Under the pieces are notes generated by a model, which worked only from the letters and a program-made list of their open reading frames with translations, searched no databases and was not told the origin of the DNA. A stretch of 64,000 nucleotides of DNA from positions 98,939 to 162,938 of the forward strand of contig CAKPDH010000001.1 in NCBI GenBank assembly GCA_934148845.1, given 5' to 3'. The stretch comes from an uncultured Bacilli bacterium (GTDB taxonomy: Bacteria; Bacillota_I; Bacilli_A; RF39; UBA660). The position numbers and the translations under genes were made by a program. This document shows, piece after piece, positions 3,520-46,999 of this stretch (position 1 is the first letter of the stretch; each line of letters begins with the position of its first letter).

Positions 3520-4780
3520 TTTAGAAAAATTAGATTTAACACTTTATCATGAAGAATTATCTAATGGACTTAATGTTTATATAGTACCAAAAGATAATGT
3601 TAATGGAATATATGCAACCTTTACTACTAAATTTGGATCTGTTAATCAAGAATTTGTGCCTATATCAGAGAAAAAAATGGTTAAAGTACCACTAGGCGTA
3701 GCTCATTTTTTAGAACATAAGATGTTTGAACAAAAGGATTCAAAAGATCCATTTACTTTTTATTCAGAACGCGGATGTGATTCAAACGCTAATACATCTA
3801 ATTATAAAACCACTTATTTATTTAGTGGTTCTAATTCTTTTTTAGAAAATTTAGATTACTTACTTGATTATGTACAATCCCCATATTTTACGGATTCTAA
3901 TGTTGAAAAAGAAAAGGGAATAATAGAGCAAGAAATTAAAATGTATGACGATGATCCATATTTTAAAATGTATTCAAGTGTACTTTATAATGCTTTTCAT
4001 ATACATCCAATAAGATATCCAATAGGAGGAACAAAGGAAGATATTTATAAGATTACTAAAGAAGATTTATATACTTGTTATAATACTTTTTATAATCCAT
4101 CTAATATGTTTTTAGTTATTACTGGAAATGTTGATCCAGAGGATGTTATAGCCTTAATAAAATTAAATCAAGAAAAAAAGAAGTTTGAAAAAATAAAGAA
4201 AATTAAAGTAAAAGAGTATGATGAACCTGATACAGTATTTAAAGAATATGATAGTACAAAAATGGATATTGAACTTCCTAAAATATCTGTAGCTTATAAA
4301 TTTAATTTTTCTAAAAGTAAAAAAAATATGGCTTTAATAAAAACAGTTATAGCAAACGTCTTAGATCTTAGACTTGGTACTACGTCTATTTTACATGAGA
4401 ATTTAAAAAGAGATGGATTAATTACATATGGAATAGATGTTAGTTTAGTTAATACAGATAAACATATTTTAGCTATTATTACTTTTGAAACAGAAGAAAT
4501 TGATAAAGTAATAAAATTAATAGAAGATGAACTTAGAAATTTATCTATTACTGAAGAAGAATTAAAAAGAAGAAAAAAGATAGCTAAAAGTAATTCGATA
4601 TATAGAAGTGATAATATTTATTCTATTAATAATAAAATTGTAAGTAATATTATGAATTATAATTCGGTTATATGTGATGTATATAAGATGATTGATGATG
4701 TTGATATGACTTTAGTTAATGATGTGATAAATAAAGTAAAATTAGATAATAAAACAGTTTACGTCATTAATAAAGCTTGA
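3506..4780 (+). CDS. M16-family zinc peptidase (insulinase-like), active-site HFLEH present
   Basis: HFLEHKMFE (HxxEH inverted zincin motif) near the N-terminus; about 425 aa. RBS GAAGGTGG before the ATG at 3506. Confidence 0.75.
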   Translation: MEKNNLEKLDLTLYHEELSNGLNVYIVPKDNVNGIYATFTTKFGSVNQEFVPISEKKMVKVPLGVAHFLEHKMFEQKDSKDPFTFYSERGCDSNANTSNYKTTYLFSGSNSFLENLDYLLDYVQSPYFTDSNVEKEKGIIEQEIKMYDDDPYFKMYSSVLYNAFHIHPIRYPIGGTKEDIYKITKEDLYTCYNTFYNPSNMFLVITGNVDPEDVIALIKLNQEKKKFEKIKKIKVKEYDEPDTVFKEYDSTKMDIELPKISVAYKFNFSKSKKNMALIKTVIANVLDLRLGTTSILHENLKRDGLITYGIDVSLVNTDKHILAIITFETEEIDKVIKLIEDELRNLSITEEELKRRKKIAKSNSIYRSDNIYSINNKIVSNIMNYNSVICDVYKMIDDVDMTLVNDVINKVKLDNKTVYVINKA

Positions 4781-4825
4781 TTTATTAATGAAATCATGAT
4801 AAATTATATGAGTTAGGAGGTAATT

Positions 4826-5032
4826 ATGCGTACGTTTTTAATAATTGTTTCAATATTACTAATAGCAATCGTGTTACTTCAAAGTGGTAAAGCAGAAGGT
4901 GCATCTTCAATTATTACTGGTGGTAATAATGATTTGTTTAAAAATAGAAAAGAAAGAGGAGGAGAGTTATTTATTACATATTTAACTGGAATCCTTGGTA
5001 TTATATTTTTAGCACTTTGTATAATTTTATAA
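4826..5032 (+). CDS. secG: Preprotein translocase subunit SecG
   Basis: 68 aa with two TM helices; MRTFLIIVSILLIAIVLLQSGKAEG..GG..LF...ER..L resembles the SecG consensus. RBS AGGAGG. Confidence 0.7.
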   Translation: MRTFLIIVSILLIAIVLLQSGKAEGASSIITGGNNDLFKNRKERGGELFITYLTGILGIIFLALCIIL

Positions 5033-5055
5033 GTTGAGTAATCAACTTTTTTTTT
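5032..5055 (+). terminator. Rho-independent terminator after secG
   Basis: AGTTGA-gtaa-TCAACT followed by T9. Confidence 0.65.
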
Positions 5056-5113
5056 AAAATTGTTTTTTTTTATATTTAAATATGTTAAACTATATATATT
5101 GAAAGGTGATTTT

Positions 5114-6388
5114 ATGAGTGTTTTACCAGCAGATACATTTATCGTTGTAAATAAGACAATTTTGTGTGATAATGATAGAAAATTATTAACGCTTTTATAT
5201 CAGCCAATAATTGGCTCACAAGCTATAAGTCTTTATTATACATTATGGGCTTATTTAGATAAAACTGAATTAATGTCAAATGAATGGACTCATCATCATA
5301 TATTAAGGGATATGATGATAAGTAATTTAGAATTCTGTGATGCTAAAGTAAAATTAGAAGCTATAGGTCTTATGAAAACATATTTAAAGAAAAACAATAT
5401 AAATAATTATATTTATGAATTATATTCTCCTTTAAATGCTTCTGAATTTATAAATAATCCTTTATTAAATATGGCTCTTTTTAATGCAGTAGGAAAACTT
5501 GAATATGAAAGAATTGTAAGTTATTTTAAGATTCCTAAAATAAATTTAAGAGAATATGAAGATATAACCAGTAAATTTAGTGATGTATTTGCGTTTTCAA
5601 ATATAGCTTATAATGATAATTTGATTTATGATATAAAAAAATCAAATTATAGAAAACTAGAAATATTATCAAAAATAGATATAAATACAATATTAAGTTT
5701 AATAAGTGATGATATTTTAAATAAAAAATCTCTTACTAGAGATACTAAAGATCTTTTATTTAAAATTGCATATATCTATAATTATTCAAATGATGATATG
5801 ATAGAACTAATTAGAAATTCTATATCAGAAAAACATACTATTGATAAAAAATTACTTCAAGAGAATGCTAATAAATATTATAGATATGACAATATGGGTA
5901 AACTACCAAGTATAATATATAAAAATCAACCAGAATATTTAAGAGAACAATCTTCTGATACTTCAAATAGATCACGTATGATACATTTATTTGAAACAAC
6001 AAGTCCATATGATTTTATATGTAGTAAATATAAAACAGGAAGACCAACAAGCTCTGATTTAAATATTATCTCATACTTACTTATAGATTTAAATTTAAAA
6101 CCAGGGGTTGTTAATGTTTTAGTTGATTATGTTTTAAAAATAAATAATAATAAGCTTATTAAATCTTTTGTTGAGGTGATCGCATCTCAGTGGAGTAAGA
6201 GTGGAATTGAAACTGTTAATGATGCTATGGCTCTTGCAGAAAAAGAATATAAGAATAAGAAAACACTTAAAGATAAAGTAGTAAAAAAAGAAGCAATAAA
6301 ACCAGAGTGGTTTAATAAGAATGTAGAGCAAAGGGAAGCTACTGCTTCTGAAATAAGAATGTTAGAAGAACGTATGAAAAGGAGTTAG
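5114..6388 (+). CDS. dnaB: Replication initiation/membrane attachment protein (Bacillus-type DnaB, DnaD-like domains)
   Basis: About 425 aa, two DnaD-like regions (YQPIIGSQAISLYYTLW; ...SDLNIISYLLIDLNLKPGVVNVLVDYVL). Immediately upstream of, and translationally coupled to, the dnaI-like loader, as in the B. subtilis dnaB-dnaI operon. Start at the ATG at 5114, after the run of AT-rich codons. Confidence 0.6.
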   Translation: MSVLPADTFIVVNKTILCDNDRKLLTLLYQPIIGSQAISLYYTLWAYLDKTELMSNEWTHHHILRDMMISNLEFCDAKVKLEAIGLMKTYLKKNNINNYIYELYSPLNASEFINNPLLNMALFNAVGKLEYERIVSYFKIPKINLREYEDITSKFSDVFAFSNIAYNDNLIYDIKKSNYRKLEILSKIDINTILSLISDDILNKKSLTRDTKDLLFKIAYIYNYSNDDMIELIRNSISEKHTIDKKLLQENANKYYRYDNMGKLPSIIYKNQPEYLREQSSDTSNRSRMIHLFETTSPYDFICSKYKTGRPTSSDLNIISYLLIDLNLKPGVVNVLVDYVLKINNNKLIKSFVEVIASQWSKSGIETVNDAMALAEKEYKNKKTLKDKVVKKEAIKPEWFNKNVEQREATASEIRMLEERMKRS

Positions 6389-6390
6389 GT

Positions 6391-7287
6391 ATGCATAATA
6401 TATTAAATGATTTAGATATAAAGGAAAAAGTTGATTTAGATTTAGAATATAAAAAAGCACTTTTAGACCCTAATTTTAAACAAATAGTAAAATCATTAAA
6501 ATTAGATCCTTTAGAACTTAAAAAATATACATCACAATTACAAGAAGCAGCAAGTTCTTATTCTAATTGTAAATCTTGTAAATGTTTACTTGATTGTAAA
6601 AATAAAATAGAGGGTTTTTGTTATTTACCATTTAATGTTAATGGTGTGATTAGTTTTTTTTACAAGCCTTGTAAGTATAAAGAAATTAATTTAAGTAAAA
6701 ATAAATATTTAAATAATATAAAATTCTTTAATACACCTAGTTATGTTAAAGATGCCTCTCTTGATAATATATATAAAACTGATAAAAATAGATTTGAAGT
6801 AATTAATGCACTTATGGATTTTTTAGATAATTATGAAAGTAACAAACCTTGTAAAGGACTATATTTAAGTGGTAATTTTGGATGTGGTAAAACATATTTA
6901 ATATCAGCTATCTTTAATGAACTTGCAAAGCATAATTATAAAAGTAGTATAGTTTTTTGGCCAGAATTTTTACGTCAAGCTTTTTATGACGATTTTAAAG
7001 ATAAGTTTGATTATGTAAAAAAAGTTCCACTTTTACTAATAGATGATATAGGAGCAGAAGGATTAACTAGTTATAATAGAGATGAAATATTATGCCCTTT
7101 ATTACAATATAGAATGGATAATAACTTAGCTACTTTTTTTACATCAAATCTTAATTTAAATGAATTAGAAATGCACTTAGCAAATTCAAAAAGCGGAGTA
7201 GATAGTGTAAAAGCAAAAAGAATTATTTGTAGAATAGAACAACTTACAAATAATTTAGAAATGATAAGTAAAAATTTAAGAAAATAA
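6391..7287 (+). CDS. dnaI: Primosomal helicase loader DnaI (DnaC family AAA+)
   Basis: N-terminal Cys cluster CKSCKC..DCKN (zinc-binding module), Walker A GNFGCGKTYL, Walker B LLLIDDIGAE. Confidence 0.75.
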   Translation: MHNILNDLDIKEKVDLDLEYKKALLDPNFKQIVKSLKLDPLELKKYTSQLQEAASSYSNCKSCKCLLDCKNKIEGFCYLPFNVNGVISFFYKPCKYKEINLSKNKYLNNIKFFNTPSYVKDASLDNIYKTDKNRFEVINALMDFLDNYESNKPCKGLYLSGNFGCGKTYLISAIFNELAKHNYKSSIVFWPEFLRQAFYDDFKDKFDYVKKVPLLLIDDIGAEGLTSYNRDEILCPLLQYRMDNNLATFFTSNLNLNELEMHLANSKSGVDSVKAKRIICRIEQLTNNLEMISKNLRK

Positions 7288-26943: not shown

Positions 26944-27237
26944 ATGAAAAAAAATACAAAAAAAATAGTTCGTCTTACAAGGGGTGAAAGAATGTTATAT
27001 TCACTAGGATTATTATGTTTTGCTTTTACTATTGTAACTAAGGTTTTTTTAAGTGCAAGTATTGGTAATATAAAAATGGATATGGAAAAGATTTCTTATA
27101 AAATAGATAATCAAAAGAAAAAGAATCAAAGCTTAGCAATGCAAGTTAATGAACTTACTTCATATGAAAACTTAAATAATGTTTTAAAAGATATGGGTCT
27201 TGCTTATAATAACGAGAACATAGTAACTATAAAATAG
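26944..27237 (+). CDS. ftsL: Cell division protein FtsL-like
   Basis: 97 aa, single TM after a basic N-terminus, then coiled-coil; third position of the dcw cluster. Confidence 0.55.
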   Translation: MKKNTKKIVRLTRGERMLYSLGLLCFAFTIVTKVFLSASIGNIKMDMEKISYKIDNQKKKNQSLAMQVNELTSYENLNNVLKDMGLAYNNENIVTIK

Positions 27238-27277: not shown

Positions 27278-27306
27278 TTGACAAAATAAAAAATCTAATC
27301 TATAAT
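27278..27306 (+). promoter_or_regulatory. Consensus sigma-A promoter of the T-box leader
   Basis: TTGACA, 17-nt spacer, TATAAT. Confidence 0.65.
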
Positions 27307-27313
27307 TAGTACA

Positions 27314-27565
27314 TAAGCTTTTGAAAGGCTTTGAATGAGAAAAGTAATAATAATTACTGATTAAAGCGAGTTAGGTATGGTGTAAGCTAACGATTAAGTT
27401 TATTATGAAAAACACTCAGGAGCTTCTAATCTGAATGAAGTAAGGTTAGACGGTTGTAATCCGTTATTAATTACTCGATTTGATAGAATCGGTAAGAGGT
27501 CAATTTTTTGACAATTTGGGTGGTACCGCGGATGATGTTCGTCCCATTGAAGACGAATTACTATT
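27314..27565 (+). promoter_or_regulatory. T-box riboswitch leader (probable Asn specifier)
   Basis: T-box sequence AATTTGGGTGGTACCGCGG at 27513-27531, then terminator stem TTCGTC..GACGAA. Stem I region contains GA/K-turn-like elements and an AAU-rich candidate specifier loop (..AGTAATAATAATTACTGA..). Confidence 0.7.
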
Positions 27566-27569
27566 ATAT

Positions 27570-27645
27570 GCTCAATTAGCTCAGTCGGTAGAGCGCACGG
27601 CTGTTAACCGTTAGGTCGTAGGTTCGAGTCCTACATTGAGCGCCA
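27570..27645 (+). tRNA. tRNA-Asn (anticodon GTT)
   Basis: 76 nt. Acceptor stem GCTCAAT/ATTGAGC, D-arm GCTCAGTCGGTAGAGC, anticodon loop CT-GTT-AA, T-arm GTAGGTTCGAGTCCTAC, encoded CCA. Confidence 0.85.
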
Positions 27646-27653
27646 TCTTATGT

Positions 27654-27729
27654 GCCTCTTTAGCTCAGTCGGTAGAGCGCACGGCTGTTAACCGTTAGGT
27701 CGTAGGTTCGAGTCCTACAAGAGGCGCCA
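27654..27729 (+). tRNA. tRNA-Asn (anticodon GTT), second copy
   Basis: Identical body to the first copy, with a different acceptor stem (GCCTCTT/AAGAGGC). Encoded CCA. Confidence 0.85.
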
Positions 27730-27742
27730 TTTTAGAATAGTA

Positions 27743-27766
27743 ACAAGTCTTATGACTTGTTTTTTT
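27743..27766 (+). terminator. Hairpin terminator/attenuation point between the tRNA genes and gatC
   Basis: ACAAGTC-ttat-GACTTGT followed by T6. Confidence 0.6.
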
Positions 27767-27783
27767 GATTATAAGGAGGATAT

Positions 27784-28074
27784 ATGGTAACTAAGAAAGA
27801 TTTAAAAGAATATGCTAATAAGCTTATGTTTGATATGGATGATAGTGGATATGAAAGAACTCTTAAGGAATTTGAAACTATTGAAAAGCACATGGCTTTG
27901 ATTGGAAAGATAGATGGTATAGAAGATGTTTCTCCTATGACTTTTCCATATGTAATATATCATGCAAAATTAAGAGATGATGTATATGAAAATACATTAA
28001 CTAGCGAAGATGTACTTAAAAATGCAAAAGATACAAAAGCAGATCAAATTAAAGTACCAAAGGTGGTGGGATAA
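27784..28074 (+). CDS. gatC: Glutamyl/aspartyl-tRNA amidotransferase subunit C
   Basis: 96 aa. Position immediately 5' of gatA with a 1-nt overlap. RBS AAGGAGG. Confidence 0.8.
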   Translation: MVTKKDLKEYANKLMFDMDDSGYERTLKEFETIEKHMALIGKIDGIEDVSPMTFPYVIYHAKLRDDVYENTLTSEDVLKNAKDTKADQIKVPKVVG

Positions 28075-29516
28075 TGAAAAATATTGTAGAACTTAGAAAA
28101 GATTTAGATAATAATAATGTTACACCAGAAGATTTATTTAAGTGCGCTAATATGAAGGCTCATAAGTATCAAGATGAATTTAATTCATTTGTAACTATAC
28201 TTGATTCTTGTAATTATAATAGTTCAAATTCTATTTTAAATGGAATACCTTATGCACTTAAGGATAACTTTTCTACAAAAGGAATATTATCCACATCATC
28301 ATCAAATATATTAAAAGATTATGTTCCAGTATATGATGCTACTGTATATAAAAAATTAAAAGAAGCTGGCGCTATACTTGTAGGTAAAACAGTTTTAGAT
28401 GAACTTGCTATGGGTGGAACTGGTACAACTGGTCATACTGGTATAGTAAGAAATCCTTGGGATAAAAATAGACAAATAGGAGGATCTTCCGCTGGTTCAG
28501 CTGCTTCAGTCGCACTTGGTATAGTTCCTTTTGCAATTGGATCAGATACTGGGGACTCAGTAAGAAAACCAGCTGCTTATGGTGGCATTGTAGGATTTAA
28601 ACCAACGTATGGTAGAATATCAAGATATGGACTTTTTGCTTTTGCATCTAGCTTAGATCATGTTGGTATTTTTACACGTAATGTTTTAGATTGTGCTATA
28701 GTAACAGATATAATTAAAGGAAAAGATGAGAGGGATATGACCTCTCTACCTGATGATAATATTAAATATACTGACTTTATAAATGATGATATTAAAGGTA
28801 AAAAATTATTTTATATTAAAGAGTTAACAGATAAAAATTTATATAAAGATAATGATGAAACATTGGAAATTTTATCTAAGTTTGAAGAAAATATAAATAA
28901 ACTTAGAAAAATGGGATTTATTGTTTCAGAAGTATCTTTTGATGAAAAATTATTAAAAGCTATTTATCCTTCTTATATGGCAATTAGTTGTGCCGAAGCA
29001 ACTAGCAATAATTCTAATCTTACTGGTATAATATTTGGCCCAAGAGGTGCTGGAGATAATATTAATGAAATAATGTTTAATGCTAGAACTAATGGATTTT
29101 CTGAACTAATTAAGAGAAGATTTATTTTAGGTAGTTATATTTTACAAAAAGAAAATCAAGAAAGACTATTTAAAAATGCACAAAGACTTAGAAGAATTAT
29201 TGTAGATAAAATGAATGAATTATATAAAGAATATGATGCTATGATATTACCCGCAAGCGGTGGTATAGCTCCAAAATTTGAAGATGAGATAGATAGAATG
29301 AGCGATAGATATTTAATGCTTGAAAATCATATGGCAATAGGTAATTTCGGTGGCTTTCCAAGTATAACTATACCAGCAGGATTTGTAAAAAATATGCCAA
29401 TAGGTATAAATATAACAGGAAAATGTTTTTCTGATTCACTAGTTCTTAATATAGCAAATAAAATAGAAGAAGAATTAGGATATAAAGATTTAATTAAGGA
29501 GGAATATGATGTATAA
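28074..29516 (+). CDS. gatA: Glutamyl/aspartyl-tRNA amidotransferase subunit A (amidase signature)
   Basis: Amidase signature GGSSAGSAASVALG..GSDTGDS.R.PA, catalytic Ser-cisSer-Lys region. 480 aa. Confidence 0.9.
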   Translation: MKNIVELRKDLDNNNVTPEDLFKCANMKAHKYQDEFNSFVTILDSCNYNSSNSILNGIPYALKDNFSTKGILSTSSSNILKDYVPVYDATVYKKLKEAGAILVGKTVLDELAMGGTGTTGHTGIVRNPWDKNRQIGGSSAGSAASVALGIVPFAIGSDTGDSVRKPAAYGGIVGFKPTYGRISRYGLFAFASSLDHVGIFTRNVLDCAIVTDIIKGKDERDMTSLPDDNIKYTDFINDDIKGKKLFYIKELTDKNLYKDNDETLEILSKFEENINKLRKMGFIVSEVSFDEKLLKAIYPSYMAISCAEATSNNSNLTGIIFGPRGAGDNINEIMFNARTNGFSELIKRRFILGSYILQKENQERLFKNAQRLRRIIVDKMNELYKEYDAMILPASGGIAPKFEDEIDRMSDRYLMLENHMAIGNFGGFPSITIPAGFVKNMPIGINITGKCFSDSLVLNIANKIEEELGYKDLIKEEYDV

Positions 29517-30933
29517 GACTGTAATTGGACTTGAAGTACACTGTGAGGTTATTACTAATTCAAAAAACTTTTCAACTGCTAAAAATTCATATTCAGAATA
29601 TCCAAATGAAAATATTGATACAACAGATATAGGTCTTCCTGGAGTTCTTCCAATAGCTAATCGTGAAGCATTTAGAAAATCACTTATGATGGCACTTGCT
29701 CTTAATTGTCAAACTCCAGATATAGTTATGTTTGACAGAAAAAATTATTATTATCCTGATTTACCTAAAGGATATCAAATAACTCAAATGACAAAACCAG
29801 TAGGTATTAATGGATATGTAATGATTAATGTAGACGGTGTCGATAAAAAAGTTGAAATTGATAATATTCATTTAGAAGAAGATACAGCTTCTATGGAGCA
29901 TTTTAGTAATTATTCATTAATCGATTACAATAGAGCAGGAGTACCATTACTTGAAGTTGTAACAACTCCTTGTATGTATTCAGTAAAAGAAGCATTAACA
30001 TTTCTAGAAGCATTAAAAGGTATATTTCTTTATACTGGAGTATCTTTAGCTAGAGTTGATAGAGGACAAATGAGATGTGATGTAAATGTTAATCTTATGG
30101 ATTCTAATGGTAATTATATAACTCCTAAAGTAGAAATGAAAAATATTAATAGCTTTAATAATGTAAAATTAGCTATAGAAGCTGAGGTTAAAAGACAAAT
30201 TGAATGTCTAGAAACAGGTAAGGAAGAATTAATACAAGAAACTCGTAGATTTGATGAAGAAAATCTTACTACACATAGAATGCGTAGTAAAGCTGATGCT
30301 ATTGATTATAAATATTATATAGAACCTAATATTCCACCTATTAAAATAACAGATGAATGGGTATCAGAAATAAAAAGTGAAATACCTATGTTACAATTTG
30401 AAAGAGTAAATAATTATATAAATAATCTTAATTTGAATAGAAAAGAATCTGAATTATTAGTTCATGATAAAAAAATATCAGACTATTTTGAAAATGTTAT
30501 AAAATTAGGTGTTAAACCTAAAGATGCCTCAAACTGGATAACAACAAATGTTATGGGCTATTTAAATAAAAATGGTAAAAATATAGATGAGATTAATTTA
30601 AGTCCTGAATATTTAGCACAATTAATAAAATTAGTTGACACTGGTAAAATATCTGGAAAGCAATCAAAAGAAGTATTTGAACAAATATTAGTTTCATCTA
30701 AATCGCCAGAAGAAATAGTAAAAAGCCTTAACATAACTCAAATTACTGATTTAGATACAATAAGAAATATAGTAGTAAAATTATTAGATAACTATCCAAA
30801 CTTAATAGAGGATCATAAAAAAGGTAAAAATACATTTGATTTCTTTGTAGGTCAAGTAATGAAAGAAACTAAAGGTAGAGCTAATCCAAGTATAACAGCA
30901 CGTATTATAAAAGAAGAAATGGAGGATAGATAA
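29506..30933 (+). CDS. gatB: Glutamyl/aspartyl-tRNA amidotransferase subunit B
   Basis: GLEVHCEV.., ..NRAGVPLLEVVT.., C-terminal YqeY-like tail; 475 aa. Overlaps gatA by 11 nt. Confidence 0.9.
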   Translation: MMYKTVIGLEVHCEVITNSKNFSTAKNSYSEYPNENIDTTDIGLPGVLPIANREAFRKSLMMALALNCQTPDIVMFDRKNYYYPDLPKGYQITQMTKPVGINGYVMINVDGVDKKVEIDNIHLEEDTASMEHFSNYSLIDYNRAGVPLLEVVTTPCMYSVKEALTFLEALKGIFLYTGVSLARVDRGQMRCDVNVNLMDSNGNYITPKVEMKNINSFNNVKLAIEAEVKRQIECLETGKEELIQETRRFDEENLTTHRMRSKADAIDYKYYIEPNIPPIKITDEWVSEIKSEIPMLQFERVNNYINNLNLNRKESELLVHDKKISDYFENVIKLGVKPKDASNWITTNVMGYLNKNGKNIDEINLSPEYLAQLIKLVDTGKISGKQSKEVFEQILVSSKSPEEIVKSLNITQITDLDTIRNIVVKLLDNYPNLIEDHKKGKNTFDFFVGQVMKETKGRANPSITARIIKEEMEDR

Positions 30934-30934
30934 T

Positions 30935-32311
30935 ATGGATTTAAAAGATTTATTAAAAGAAATAGAAAAATATGAAGGAAAAGAAATTACCATAAATGGT
31001 TGGATAAAAAGTCATAGAAAACAAAAAGAATATGGATTTATTGATTTTACTGATGGTACTTGTTTTCAAACACTTCAAGTTGTATATGATAATAAATTAG
31101 AAGATTTCCTAGATATTCAAAAATTACATATAGGAAGCGCTATAGAATTAAATGGTATTATAATTAGGTCCGAAGGTGGAGGACAAAGCCATGAATTAAA
31201 ATTATCAAAAATTAAATTATTGGGTGATTGTCCACTAGATTATCCACTACAATCAAAAGGGAGACCAACTAGAGAATTCTTAAGAGAAATTGCATACTTA
31301 AGACCTCGTACAAATCTTTATAATAATGTTTTTCGTGTAAGAAGTGTAGCTGCATACGCTATACATAAATATTTTCAAGAAAATGGCTATGTATATTTTC
31401 ATGCTCCATTAATTACAGCAAGTGATTGTGAAGGGGCAGGTGAGATGTTTCAAGTAACAACTCTTGATCTAAATAAAATAGCTGAAAGTGGAAAGGTTGA
31501 TTATTCAAAAGACTTCTTTGGTAAACCTGCATCCCTTACTGTAAGTGGTCAACTTCAAGCAGAAACATTTGCGCTTGCATATAAAAAGACATATACATTT
31601 GGTCCCACATTTAGAGCAGAAAATTCAAATACTAAAACACATGCAAATGAATTTTGGATGATTGAACCAGAAATCGCATTCTGTGACCTTGAAGGCGATA
31701 TGAATATTATGGAAGATATGCTTAAATATGTAGTTAAGTATGTACTTGATAATTGTAAGAGTGAAATGTCATTTTTTGATTCGTACGTTGAAAAAGGTCT
31801 AATTAATAAATTAACTAAGCTTGTTAATAGTAAGTTTGTAAGAATAGATCATAAAGAAGTTATTTCTATTTTGAAAAAAGCAGATGTAAAATGGGAATTT
31901 GAACCAGAATATGGTGAAGATATTGCAAAAGAACATGAAAAATATATTACTGAGTATTTTGATGGACCAGTATTTATAAAAAATTGGCCAAAAGATATAA
32001 AAGCATTCTATATGAAACAAAATGATGATTTAGAAACAGTAGCTGCTGTTGATCTTGAAGTTCCAGGAGCAGGTGAGCTTATGGGTGGATCTCAAAGAGA
32101 AGAAAGCTATGATAAGCTATTAAATAGAATGAAAGAACTAAATATGAGTACAGACGGGTTAGATTGGTATTTAAATTTAAGAAAATTTGGTGGATGTGTA
32201 CATTCAGGATTTGGAATGGGATTTGAAAGATTACTTATTTATTTAACTGGTGTAGATAATATAAGAGATGTTATTCCTTATTATAGAACACCAGGAAATT
32301 GTGATTATTAA
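30935..32311 (+). CDS. Class IIb aminoacyl-tRNA synthetase, AsnRS-like (asparaginyl-tRNA synthetase or archaeal-type non-discriminating AspRS)
   Basis: 458 aa. N-terminal OB anticodon-binding domain. Motif 2 [28 protein letters not shown] (close to B. subtilis AsnS [28 protein letters not shown]), motif 3 ..GFGMGFERL.. Length excludes bacterial-type AspRS (about 590 aa). Confidence 0.8.
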   Translation: [458 protein letters not shown]

Positions 32312-32325
32312 AATTTATAAATTAA

Positions 32326-32355
32326 AGCATTTAAACTATTTGAATGCTTTTTTAA
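32326..32355 (+). terminator. Terminator after the aaRS gene
   Basis: AAAGCATT-11 nt-AATGCTTT followed by a T-rich tract. Confidence 0.5.
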
Positions 32356-32408: not shown

Positions 32409-33614
32409 ATGTTTAAAAAAATTTGGAAAAATTATAAATTTCCAATTATATTATTAATTTCTATAATAATAGGATGTATTTTAGGAATTATTTTAGGTGA
32501 TAATGCTATATCATTAAAACCTATAGGAACTATATTTATAAATATGCTTTATGTAATAGTAGTTCCTTTAGTATTCTTTACTATTTCTAGTAGTATATCA
32601 AGTATTAAAAGTTTAAAAAAACTTGGTAAAATATTTAAAGTAATGTTTATTGTATTTATTATAACAAGTATGTTATCTGCTTTATTTACTTTAATTGGTG
32701 TTAAAATAATAGACCCTGTTGGTAATATTAATATAAGTCTTACAGCAGGTACTAAAGAAAATATAGATATTGGAAGTAAAATAGTTGATATGTTAACGGT
32801 TTCAGACTTTTATCAATTATTATCTAAAGGTAGTATGTTACCACTTATTATATTTTCTATAATATTTGGATTTGGTGTAGGAATGGTAAAGGATGAATCA
32901 AAAAAAATATCTGATGCTTTAAATTTAATATCAAAAGTAATGATGAATGTAATAAAAATAATTATGTATTATGCTCCTATAGGATTATGTGCTTATTTTG
33001 CAGCACTTATAGGAGAATATGGTAAAGAAATAATAGGTAGTTATGCTAGAAGTATGATATTTTATTACATTATGGCTATATTGTATTATGTTATATTTTA
33101 TACTATATATAGCTATATATATAAGAAAAAAAGAGGAGTTAAAGAGTTTTTTAAAAGTGCTTTTACTCCAACAGTAACATCACTTGGCACCTGTTCTTCA
33201 CTTGCAAGTCTTCCATCAAATTTAGAATGTGCTACAGAACTTGGAATAGATGATGATGTAGCTAAAACAACACTTCCAATAGGAGCTACTATGCATATGG
33301 AAGGATCCAGTATGGCATCAATTCTAAAAATAGCTTTCTTATTTGGTGTATTTGGTAAAAGTTTTACAGGAATAGATACATATCTAATAGCTATTTTAAT
33401 TTCAGTATTATCAGGAGTAGTAATGTCAGGAATACCTGGTGGAGGATTAATAGGAGAAATGCTAATAGTTTCATTATATAATTTCCCATTAGAAGCATTC
33501 CCTATAATTGCAACAATAGGCTGGATAGTAGATCCACCAGCTACTTGCTTAAATGTAGTAGGAGATGTTGCTAGTGCGTCTCTCATAGATAAATATATAA
33601 ATAAAAAAAGTTAA
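32409..33614 (+). CDS. Dicarboxylate/amino acid:cation symporter (DAACS family)
   Basis: 401 aa, 8-10 TM segments with re-entrant-loop-like regions (..TLPIGATMHMEGSSMA.., ..SGIPGGGLIGE..) typical of GltP/SstT-like transporters. RBS AGGAGG. Confidence 0.65.
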   Translation: MFKKIWKNYKFPIILLISIIIGCILGIILGDNAISLKPIGTIFINMLYVIVVPLVFFTISSSISSIKSLKKLGKIFKVMFIVFIITSMLSALFTLIGVKIIDPVGNINISLTAGTKENIDIGSKIVDMLTVSDFYQLLSKGSMLPLIIFSIIFGFGVGMVKDESKKISDALNLISKVMMNVIKIIMYYAPIGLCAYFAALIGEYGKEIIGSYARSMIFYYIMAILYYVIFYTIYSYIYKKKRGVKEFFKSAFTPTVTSLGTCSSLASLPSNLECATELGIDDDVAKTTLPIGATMHMEGSSMASILKIAFLFGVFGKSFTGIDTYLIAILISVLSGVVMSGIPGGGLIGEMLIVSLYNFPLEAFPIIATIGWIVDPPATCLNVVGDVASASLIDKYINKKS

Positions 33615-45016: not shown

Positions 45017-45024
45017 ATTTTCAT

Positions 45025-45240
45025 CAAAGGCAATGATTAGGACACGATTATTAAAGTATCATGATAGAGAGCTAGATTATGGTGGAATTCTAGTATGTAA
45101 TTTAATAGTTACTACCTATGAGCTGTTATCGAAAGATAAACCGGATAATACCGTTATTTAAATTAAGATATAAATTAGGATGGTACCGCGTACTACGTTT
45201 CTTACGCTCCTTAGTGGAGATAGGAAACGTTTTTTTATAG
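45025..45240 (+). promoter_or_regulatory. T-box riboswitch leader, Thr specifier (ACC)
   Basis: T-box sequence AAATTAGGATGGTACCGCG at 45173-45191. ACC codon in the candidate specifier loop (..GTTACTACCTATGAG..). Terminator AACGTTTC...GAAACGTT + T7 immediately before thrS. Confidence 0.75.
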
Positions 45241-45250
45241 GAGAGGTTTT

Positions 45251-46999
45251 ATGATAAATATTAAAGAAGATAAAGAGTTAAATGTATTAAATCATTCATG
45301 TGCACATTTAATGGCACATGCTATAAAGCACTTATATAAAGATGCAAAATTTTGGGTAGGCCCTGTAATAGATAGTGGTTTTTATTATGATGTTGATTTA
45401 GGTGATGCTGTAATAAATTCATCTGACTTATTAAAAATAGAAAGTGAAATGAAAAAAATAGCTAAGTCTGATAAGTTAATTAAAAGAATTGAGTTATCTA
45501 AAGGAGAAGCACTTGATATGTTTAAGGATGATCCATATAAGATTGATTTAATTTCTAGAATGGATGAAGATAATACTGTTATAAGTGCTTATAAGCAAGA
45601 TGACTTTATTGATTTATGTAGAGGACCTCATATGCCAACTACTAAATCTATGAAATATTTTAAGCTTATAAAAGTATCAGGTGCATATTATAAAGGTGAT
45701 TCAAAAAATAAAATGCTTCAAAGAATATATGGAGTATGCTTTAATAATCAAGAAGACTTAGATAATTATTTAAAAGAATTAGAAGAAGCTAAAGAAAGAG
45801 ATCATAGAAAAATAGGAAAAGATTTAGGTATATTTATGTCTCATGATTTAGTTGGAAAAGGTATGCCACTTTGGTTACCTAATGGTGCTATAATAAGAAA
45901 ACAACTAGAAAATTATATATATGATAAAGAAAGAAAAATGGGATATTTACATGTATATACACCTTGTGTTGGTACTATTGATTTATATAAGACTAGTGGT
46001 CACTTTGATCATTATAAAGAAAATATGTTCCCATCAATGAAAGTAGATGATGAAGAGTTTGTACTTCGTCCAATGAATTGTCCTCATCATATGTTAGTTT
46101 ATGGTAATGAGCTTCATTCTTATAGAGATTTACCTATTAGAATAGGTGAGTTTGCAACTGATTTTAGATATGAAGCAAGTGGAGCTGTTAAGGGACTTGA
46201 AAGAGTACGTTGTATGTGCCAAAATGATGCTCATCTTTTTGTTAGACCAGATCAAATAGGTGATGAATTTAAAAAGGTAGTATCTCTTATTTTAGAGGTA
46301 TATAAAGACTTTGGACTTAAAAATTATAAATTTAGATTATCATTAAGAGATCCTTTAGATAAACATAAATACTTTGATGATGATGAAATGTGGAATATAG
46401 CAGAAGATAAATTAAGAAGTGTATTAAATGAACTTGGATGTGAATATACTGAAGCTATTGGAGAAGCTGCATTTTATGGCCCTAAACTTGATGTTGAGGT
46501 AAAACCTGCAGTAGGACCTGAAGTAACTCTTTCTACTTGTCAATTAGATTTCTTATTACCAAGAAGATTTGAACTTACTTATGTTGATTCAGATGGAACT
46601 AAAAAAACTCCAGTAGTACTACATAGAGCAATTTTTGGAACATTTGATAGATTTACTGCATTTATATTAGAAGAAACTAAGGGAGCTTTACCACTTTGGT
46701 TAAGTCCAGTACAATTTAATGTAATACCAGTAAATAATAAATATCATAAAGAATATGCAACTAAGATTTATGATATGCTAAAAGATAAAGATTATAGAGT
46801 TAATCTAGATGATAGAGATGAAAAGCTAGGATATAAAATGAGAGAATCAGTAATGAAGAAAATACCATATTCAATAATCATAGGACAAAAAGAAGTAGAC
46901 AATAATAATATTAGTTATAGAACTTATGGTAGTGAAGAGACTATAACTTTATCAAAAGAAGAATTTATGGCTTTAATAGAAAAAGAATTAAGTAAATAG
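45251..46999 (+). CDS. thrS: Threonine--tRNA ligase (lacking the N-terminal TGS/N1 domain)
   Basis: Begins at the editing/N2 domain (..[20 protein letters not shown].., the equivalent of E. coli residue about 65). Class II motifs ..[16 protein letters not shown].., ..[11 protein letters not shown]..; C-terminal anticodon-binding domain. 582 aa vs about 640 typical. Confidence 0.9.

Follow-up and report, generated by a model that had tools for sequence, protein, structure and literature searches.

In a 64,000-nucleotide stretch of DNA from an uncultured Bacilli bacterium (part of contig CAKPDH010000001.1; the whole stretch is referred to here as the window), an asparagine-specific T-box leader lies between a consensus promoter and two tandem tRNA-Asn(GUU) genes, which are followed by gatC, gatA, gatB and asnS (Table 1). 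The T-box is genuine and its target class, the genes of its own ligand, is new; in some related genomes its placement, inside a tRNA operon, is new as well. The promoter, the Asn T-box, the two tRNA-Asn genes, a partial terminator, gatCAB-asnS and a final terminator, which together extend over positions 27278-32354, probably form one transcription unit, and by analogy with classical T-boxes it is likewise the favoured interpretation that read-through into tRNA-Asn, gatCAB and asnS depends on uncharged tRNA-Asn. The original prediction, made from the sequence without database searches, had placed a consensus promoter and a complete T-box 5' of two tRNA-Asn genes, a hairpin, gatCAB and a synthetase, and all of these elements were recovered where it had located them.

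The leader matches the Rfam T-box model over its full length, as had been predicted (144.1 bits with E 3e-32, where the gathering score is 93; aligned to model positions 1-219 of 219), and its specificity for Asn can be read directly. An AAU-rich stretch had been proposed as the candidate specifier; the Asn specificity held, and the undefined stretch gave way to an exact codon, AAC at 27411-27413, one of the two codons (AAC or AAU) that an Asn leader should present. The anticodon of the tRNA-Asn(GUU) encoded 156 nt downstream matches this codon. AAC and the purine that follows it are invariant in 63 of 63 distinct leaders, the preceding base being A, U or G. At the second contact site, the UGGU bulge of the window pairs with the discriminator base G73 through a U-G wobble; relatives have UGGC. 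Among at least 65 Asn loci from the genome scan described below, the variable base of UGGN is U in 36 and C in 29, with no other base occurring, and both pair with G73, which is itself the discriminator in 146 of 148 linked tRNA-Asn genes among the genome-scan matches listed. In the region 27570-27729, in which two tRNA-Asn genes had been predicted, both ARAGORN and Rfam identified two tRNA-Asn(GTT) genes; the copies differ solely in the acceptor stem.

Table 1. Positions of the elements of the Asn T-box unit in the window, with the thrS leader for comparison
Feature	Position	Strand	Evidence
Sigma-70 promoter TTGACA-17-TATAAT	27278-27306	+	12/12 consensus matches
T-box leader (Stem I, Stem II/IIA-B, Stem III, antiterminator)	27322-27549	+	Rfam RF00230
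Specifier codon AAC (Asn), in loop GAA-A-AAC-A 27407-27414	27411-27413	+	cmscan alignment, Stem I 3' internal loop
T-box bulge UGGU	27521-27524	+	read from sequence; complementary to the G73-C-C-A end of uncharged tRNA-Asn
Alternative T-box hairpin, terminator-like	27532-27567	+	inner stem 27537-27543 with 27552-27558
tRNA-Asn(GUU) copy 1	27570-27645	+	ARAGORN; Rfam tRNA 72.4 bits; G1-C72, G73, encoded CCA
tRNA-Asn(GUU) copy 2	27654-27729	+	ARAGORN; Rfam tRNA 72.5 bits; G1-C72, G73, encoded CCA
Intrinsic-terminator-like hairpin (8 bp, 27742-27761) with U7	27742-27768	+	terminator scan; -9.3 to -9.5 kcal/mol
gatC	27784-28074	+	TIGR00135 51.2 bits (cut-off 47.1); PF02686
gatA	28074-29516	+	TIGR00132 451.6 bits, slightly under cut-off 481.1; Pfam Amidase 360 bits
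gatB	29506-30933	+	NF004012 549 bits (cut-off 338); GatB_N and GatB_Yqey domains
asnS, 458-aa class II synthetase	30935-32311	+	NF003037 597.7 bits (cut-off 414); TIGR00457 562.6 bits (cut-off 342.6)
Terminator-like hairpin with U-run closing the operon 3' of asnS	32324-32354	+	-9.6 kcal/mol, z -3.2, followed by UUUUUU
Second T-box, presumably Thr, upstream of thrS (45251-46999)	45024-45214	+	90.8 bits, just below gathering score 93

The module promoter is invariant among the aligned close relatives, and it is the only one recognisable for the downstream genes. A promoter scan of the window revealed no sigma-70-like site on the + strand between 27536 and 28685, so that transcription of gatCAB-asnS apparently relies on read-through from the one at 27278; no candidate site occurs in the spacer between the second tRNA gene and gatC, where only 15 nt separate the U-run of the second hairpin from the ATG of gatC. 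At the 3' end, the terminator after asnS rules out the adjacent SDF-family transporter gene (32409-33614) as a member of the operon. The spacer hairpin between tRNA and gatC is conserved in 20 aligned loci, with 83% of the cells paired as opposed to 30-50% in slid controls, and four of its eight pairs are altered on both sides, that is, by compensatory changes. In nearly all related loci, a hairpin and a U-run are found between the final tRNA gene and gatC. The hairpin of the window probably functions as a partial terminator that sets the ratio of tRNA to mRNA. In eight loci (L032, L118, L012, L062, L107, L124, L068 and L070), the spacer hairpin contains GGTCGTAGGT...CCTAC, which resembles the T-arm of tRNA-Asn; these hairpins may be relics of a decayed tRNA-Asn copy that was reused as a terminator stem.

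In the proposed mechanism, which follows the established operation of T-boxes, the GUU anticodon of uncharged tRNA-Asn would pair with the AAC specifier and its free G73-CCA end with the UGGU bulge, which would stabilise the antiterminator. RNA polymerase would then enter the tRNA genes, and a fraction of the transcripts would continue past the second hairpin and its U7 run into gatCAB-asnS, yielding more tRNA than mRNA. The tRNAs would be freed by RNase P and 3' processing. The supply of tRNA-Asn, synthetase and amidotransferase would in this way all be tied to the charging of tRNA-Asn, and the switch would control the synthesis of its own ligand. As additional tRNA-Asn and additional AsnRS should both restore the charged fraction, the outcome would be a negative-feedback homeostat. 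Asn accounts for 7.7% of the codons, 93% of them AAU, in a genome of about 25% GC (25.3% in the window), which suggests that such a homeostat would be driven by demand. The anatomy of the unit, its Asn specificity, the fit between T-box and tRNA, the absence of a second recognisable promoter and the conservation across the lineage are shown by the sequences; the ligand dependence of read-through is what we infer from the T-box family, and whether the T-box serves as a demand sensor for its own ligand's genes, a conditional terminator before or inside a tRNA operon, we consider evenly balanced.

The arrangement is conserved throughout a lineage. GatC homologues with 73-81% identity in human-gut metagenome assemblies and metagenome-assembled genomes (MAGs) led to six loci (L001-L006), five of which retain the promoter, the T-box (129-138 bits), two tRNA-Asn genes, the hairpin with U-run and gatCAB-asnS. 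The sixth, L002, departs from this layout only by a single chimeric tRNA. This tRNA (L002 5870-5942), like another in L024 (~6440-6520), combines the 5' acceptor strand of copy 1 with the 3' strand of copy 2; ARAGORN called neither of them, and they are most likely explained by the collapse of a tandem repeat during assembly instead of by biology. One genome per GTDB species was also scanned for a T-box core with a tRNA T-arm (GGTTCRANTCC) located 80-110 nt beyond it, which yielded at least 119 loci. Among the 119 listed, the T-box precedes tRNA-Asn(GUU) in 69, representing at least 69 species. ARAGORN called the tRNA in 65 of these, the other four being located at contig ends or collapsed; in the called loci (at least 65, arrays at contig ends included), the number of tandem tRNA-Asn copies is one (15 loci), two (33), three (9) or four (8). 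The 69 listed loci all stem from AT-rich MAGs, with human, rabbit, ruminant and chicken gut among the sources. Most are labelled as uncultured Bacilli, Tenericutes, Mollicutes, Erysipelotrichaceae or Candidatus Coprosoma, and a few as Muribaculaceae, Sphaerochaetaceae or Clostridia, which may reflect mis-binning; the lineage is presumably the order RF39 and its neighbours, which it resembles. An assembly artefact is ruled out by the occurrence of the arrangement in closed chromosomes of 1.34-1.54 Mb from long-read MAGs (L064, L099 and L120); the accessions of the closed chromosomes are OZ007022.1, OZ007025.1 and OZ007038.1. The species of the window itself is covered about 153x in one Hadza assembly, ERZ4559998.

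The Rfam T-box was recovered with 102-152 bits in 18 of 19 sampled loci. In the remaining locus, L010, no T-box reached the gathering threshold; its sister locus L041 scored 102 bits. As a control, 20 listed matches in which the motif precedes a non-Asn tRNA, from genomes labelled as other phyla, were examined and none contained a T-box; all 20 were chance matches, and T-boxes before other tRNAs were rejected within the range of this search, i.e., for T-arms of the form GGTTCRANTCC at 80-110 nt. Wherever the contig continues, gatC-gatA-gatB follow the tRNA genes, except in L076 and L111, among the matches listed. In L076 (1-540), a TTGACA-17-TATACT promoter is followed by an Asn T-box with a strong terminator, tRNA-Asn, tRNA-Glu(UUC) and another strong terminator, and as the next large open reading frames (ORFs) lie on the opposite strand the T-box unit appears to consist of tRNA genes only. 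In L111, an insertion of ~1.3 kb with an ORF separates the tRNA-Asn array (end at ~4302) from gatC (~5596), and the tRNAs still have a terminator with the T-arm relic downstream.

Two main architectures can be distinguished. In architecture A, a promoter with 12/12 consensus matches occupies the equivalent position, in the window and in 24 of the 37 listed loci that lack an upstream tRNA. In architecture B (about 29 of the loci listed, closed genomes included), the T-box begins about 25 nt beyond the end of a tRNA-Ile(GAU) and tRNA-Glu(UUC) pair; between these tRNAs and the T-box no promoter better than 9/12 was found, and the sole good candidate precedes tRNA-Ile. The T-box of architecture B is thus inside a tRNA operon, and its terminator, which directly adjoins tRNA-Asn, is canonical (-13 to -21 kcal/mol, 6-7 U in 8). 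In L107 (4428-4582), tRNA-Asn takes the place of tRNA-Ile upstream of tRNA-Glu and the T-box, so that one tRNA-Asn is outside T-box control and two are inside. In L134 and L188, the T-box leads to aspS and then gatCAB, and tRNA-Asn is situated 1.4 kb upstream.

The protein genes of the unit raise the question of which pathway it serves. The three subunits of the GatCAB amidotransferase are recognisable and adjacent, the assignment of gatA being supported by the position of its ORF between gatC and gatB. The original prediction had left the fourth gene as either AsnRS or an archaeal-type, non-discriminating AspRS (ND-AspRS). AsnRS was upheld and ND-AspRS dropped, as the archaeal-type models NF003483 and TIGR00458 remained below their cut-offs (235.4 vs 353 and 195.2 vs 368.4 bits); judged by these profiles, the product of 30935-32311 is a true AsnRS. 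Because AsnRS belongs to the direct pathway, the window does not contain the complete transamidation set that had been envisaged. None of the ten further large ORFs scanned in the window, which represents 64 kb of the genome, proved to be aspS, asnA or asnB. Asn-tRNAAsn is most simply made directly by AsnRS in this organism. The fourth gene likewise encodes AsnRS in L001-L006, L088, L113, L059 and L236; in L120, L036, L041, L048, L101, L114 and L115, it encodes a bacterial-type AspRS of 579 aa (NF001750, 714-773 bits). The AspRS gene lies inside the T-box unit of relatives such as L120, L036, L134 and L157, where the window has asnS instead. In L014 (~5640-6964 in T-box orientation), the gene downstream of gatB encodes an archaeal-type ND-AspRS but is broken into two ORFs, of 251 and 150 aa, which represents a frameshift, a pseudogene or a sequencing error.

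These relatives lend some weight to the idea that the module is a dedicated kit for the indirect formation of Asn-tRNAAsn, in which the adjacent tRNA-Asn is the substrate of GatCAB. Such a function would be compatible with the transcriptional model. It would account for the linkage of gatCAB to an Asn T-box and tRNA-Asn throughout the lineage and for the AspRS, of the bacterial or archaeal ND type, encoded by the fourth gene of many relatives, and there is a parallel in Clostridium acetobutylicum, in which a T-box (NT-box) reportedly controls an aspS-gatCAB transamidation operon. Arguing against it are the AsnRS of the window, the possibility that GatCAB is required for Gln-tRNAGln alone, and the acceptor stem of the linked tRNA. 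Bailly et al. 2006 (PMC1635274) reported the U1-A72 pair as the identity element for bacterial GatCAB; with G1-C72 in its place, the Neisseria meningitidis enzyme was 100-fold less efficient. Neither tRNA-Asn gene of the window has U1-A72. G1-C72, together with G73 and an encoded CCA, occurs in 146 of 148 linked copies among the genome-scan matches listed and in 83 of 84 AT-rich copies obtained in a metagenome scan with the lineage's tRNA-Asn body as the query, the contigs of which are not assignable to particular genomes. GC-richer contigs matched by the same tRNA pattern mostly have U1 (U1-A72 after boundary correction) and no encoded CCA; G1-C72 is also present in 10 of 36 copies from these contigs. 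The claim that the tRNA-Asn is a substrate of the amidotransferase is therefore unproven, with G1-C72 in place of U1-A72. Two readings are open to GatCAB in this lineage: co-evolution with its tRNA, or a role confined to Gln-tRNAGln. As a corollary of the demand-sensor reading, the co-transcribed GatCAB may act on a G1-C72 tRNA-Asn, which would break the published bacterial rule. On balance, a dedicated indirect kit is a tentative proposal, with the odds against it.

Several observations weigh against T-box control of the tRNA genes as such. In L059 (reverse strand 4325-5145) and L157 (889-1526), the T-box and the tRNA-Asn array are followed by a second T-box, with a canonical terminator, and then gatCAB; in L133 and L236, tRNA-Asn, tRNA-Ile and tRNA-Glu are upstream of the T-box; and in 61 AT-rich loci of the metagenome scan, tRNA-Asn genes stand alone. 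Since tRNA-Asn genes are found upstream of T-boxes, between them and on their own, the wider group does not strictly require its tRNA-Asn to be under T-box control. L165 (2220-2687) has a T-box between the tRNA array and gatCAB, in a contig that begins within the array, and together with L059 and L157 it may be an evolutionary intermediate between architectures. A further observation concerns the terminator of the window T-box. The original prediction had included a terminator/antiterminator pair; a competing hairpin is present, the 5' strand of which overlaps the 3' strand of the antiterminator, but as a terminator it is non-canonical. Its inner stem has only 7 bp, and the longer version, of 12 bp with a bulge, reaches -7.7 kcal/mol (z -2.4); it is weak, lacks a U-run and was not called by the terminator scan, and it ends 2 nt before tRNA copy 1. 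The hairpins of the subclade range from -2.7 to -11.4 kcal/mol and are likewise U-less. By contrast, the thrS T-box in the same window, which the default scan missed because its score lies under the gathering score, has a strong stem and U7 directly before the ribosome-binding site of thrS, from which it follows that the weak terminator is specific to the Asn leader. Regulation in the subclade of the window is therefore probably leaky. The likeliest readings are that termination at the Asn T-box may be inefficient, leaky or factor-assisted, or that the structure may be read out otherwise, e.g., through the access of RNase P.

The weak, U-less terminator, the perfect consensus of the module promoter and the dispensability of T-box control of tRNA in related architectures could also mean that the T-box of this subclade is vestigial or very leaky and that transcription of tRNA-Asn and the operon is nearly constitutive. 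This is unlikely in view of what has been maintained: the leaders of the subclade score 129-144 bits, above the canonical thrS T-box with its 90.8 bits, the AAC codon and the UGGN-G73 match are invariant, and the alternative hairpin is kept in relatives with differing sequences (UUCGUC/GACGAA, GUCUC/GAGAC and AAUUCGUC/GACGGAUU). The maintenance of all these features suggests selection on a working switch. Retention of a U-less hairpin that abuts the 5' end of the tRNA in the window might instead indicate that the hairpin masks the 5' leader and modulates how RNase P processes the precursor or how stable the precursor is, with no role in termination; in relatives, the distance between hairpin and tRNA varies from 1 to 11 nt, and such a device would affect the first tRNA alone and not the operon and is without precedent, which makes it highly improbable. 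Hardly any weight can be given to promoters of their own for the tRNA genes or gatCAB, which would make the position of the T-box incidental: the 10/12 match inside the T-box at 27508-27536 (TTGACA at 27508, GATGAT at 27531) consists of the 3' strand of Stem III and a putative -10 that is not conserved (relatives have GGTAGT or GAAATA), about 48 matches of this kind would arise by chance in a region so rich in AT, and the tRNA-gatC spacer, as noted, is devoid of candidates.

The genomic surroundings of the module vary. Upstream in the window lie mraZ, rsmH and an FtsL/DivIC-like ORF (26944-27237), which scores below the cut-offs of both TIGR02209 and Pfam DivIC, so that the name FtsL rests mainly on its position after rsmH. 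The module had been interpreted as spliced into the dcw cluster. In L001-L006, rpsB-tsf is upstream in place of mraZ-rsmH-ftsL, and in none of 71 related loci queried with the proteins that flank the module in the window was mraZ, rsmH or ftsL found beside it, which rules out the insertion as a meaningful feature. To judge from these loci, the ftsL-adjacent position appears specific to this species and without evident meaning. A homologue of the SDF-family transporter that lies immediately downstream in the window (68% identity) is directly upstream of the T-box module in L115 (701-1900); the module thus recurs, if loosely, beside what may be a carrier of dicarboxylates or amino acids.

The T-box targets described so far are genes for aminoacyl-tRNA synthetases, amino-acid biosynthesis and transporters, and promoters are regarded as the main point of control for bacterial tRNA genes. 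With classical T-boxes, such as those of Bacillus subtilis tyrS and glyQS and that of thrS in the window, the Asn leader shares the Stem I specifier loop, the UGGN bulge and the mutually exclusive antiterminator and terminator-like helices, and asnS is a usual kind of target. It differs from them in that the first downstream genes are tRNA genes and that in one subclade the T-box is promoterless, inside a tRNA operon; from the thrS T-box it further differs by its lack of a U-run. The C. acetobutylicum operon likewise has an Asn-specific T-box before gatCAB and a class IIb synthetase, and its layout is matched exactly by the T-box-aspS-gatCAB order of L134 and L188. In the lineage described here, however, one to four tRNA-Asn genes are inserted between T-box and gatCAB, so that the sensed tRNA is a product of the unit, and the synthetase of the window is AsnRS, not AspRS. 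As A, U and G all occur directly before AAC, there is no clear sign of a conserved dual codon in which GAA and AAC overlap. Mixed operons of tRNA and protein genes are exemplified by thrU-tyrU-glyT-thrT-tufB of Escherichia coli, which is controlled at the promoter by growth rate and the stringent response. As in that operon, tRNA genes are co-transcribed with genes for proteins of the translation apparatus and released by processing; unlike it, control here would be exerted by a riboswitch that senses an encoded tRNA. Full-text literature searches, the TBDB paper and the Wels 2008 survey yielded no account in which a T-box precedes tRNA genes, in keeping with the original prediction that this feature was absent from earlier accounts, and according to Wels 2008 no T-boxes upstream of amidotransferase genes were found in the genomes then available.

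If the model is correct, the Asn T-box would be, among the natural riboswitches known, the first that controls the synthesis of its own RNA effector. It would add a new class to the targets of T-boxes and an unusual feedback topology, in which a ligand controls its own synthesis, and it is amenable to testing in vitro. Nature provides variants for comparison, with the T-box before the tRNAs, after them, on both sides of them, inside a tRNA operon or in a unit of tRNA genes only, and with strong terminators contrasting with U-less ones. The occurrence of a G1-C72 tRNA-Asn beside gatCAB and aspS poses a separate, testable question about tRNA recognition by the amidotransferase. The arrangement as a whole marks a large, uncultured lineage of gut bacteria with small genomes.

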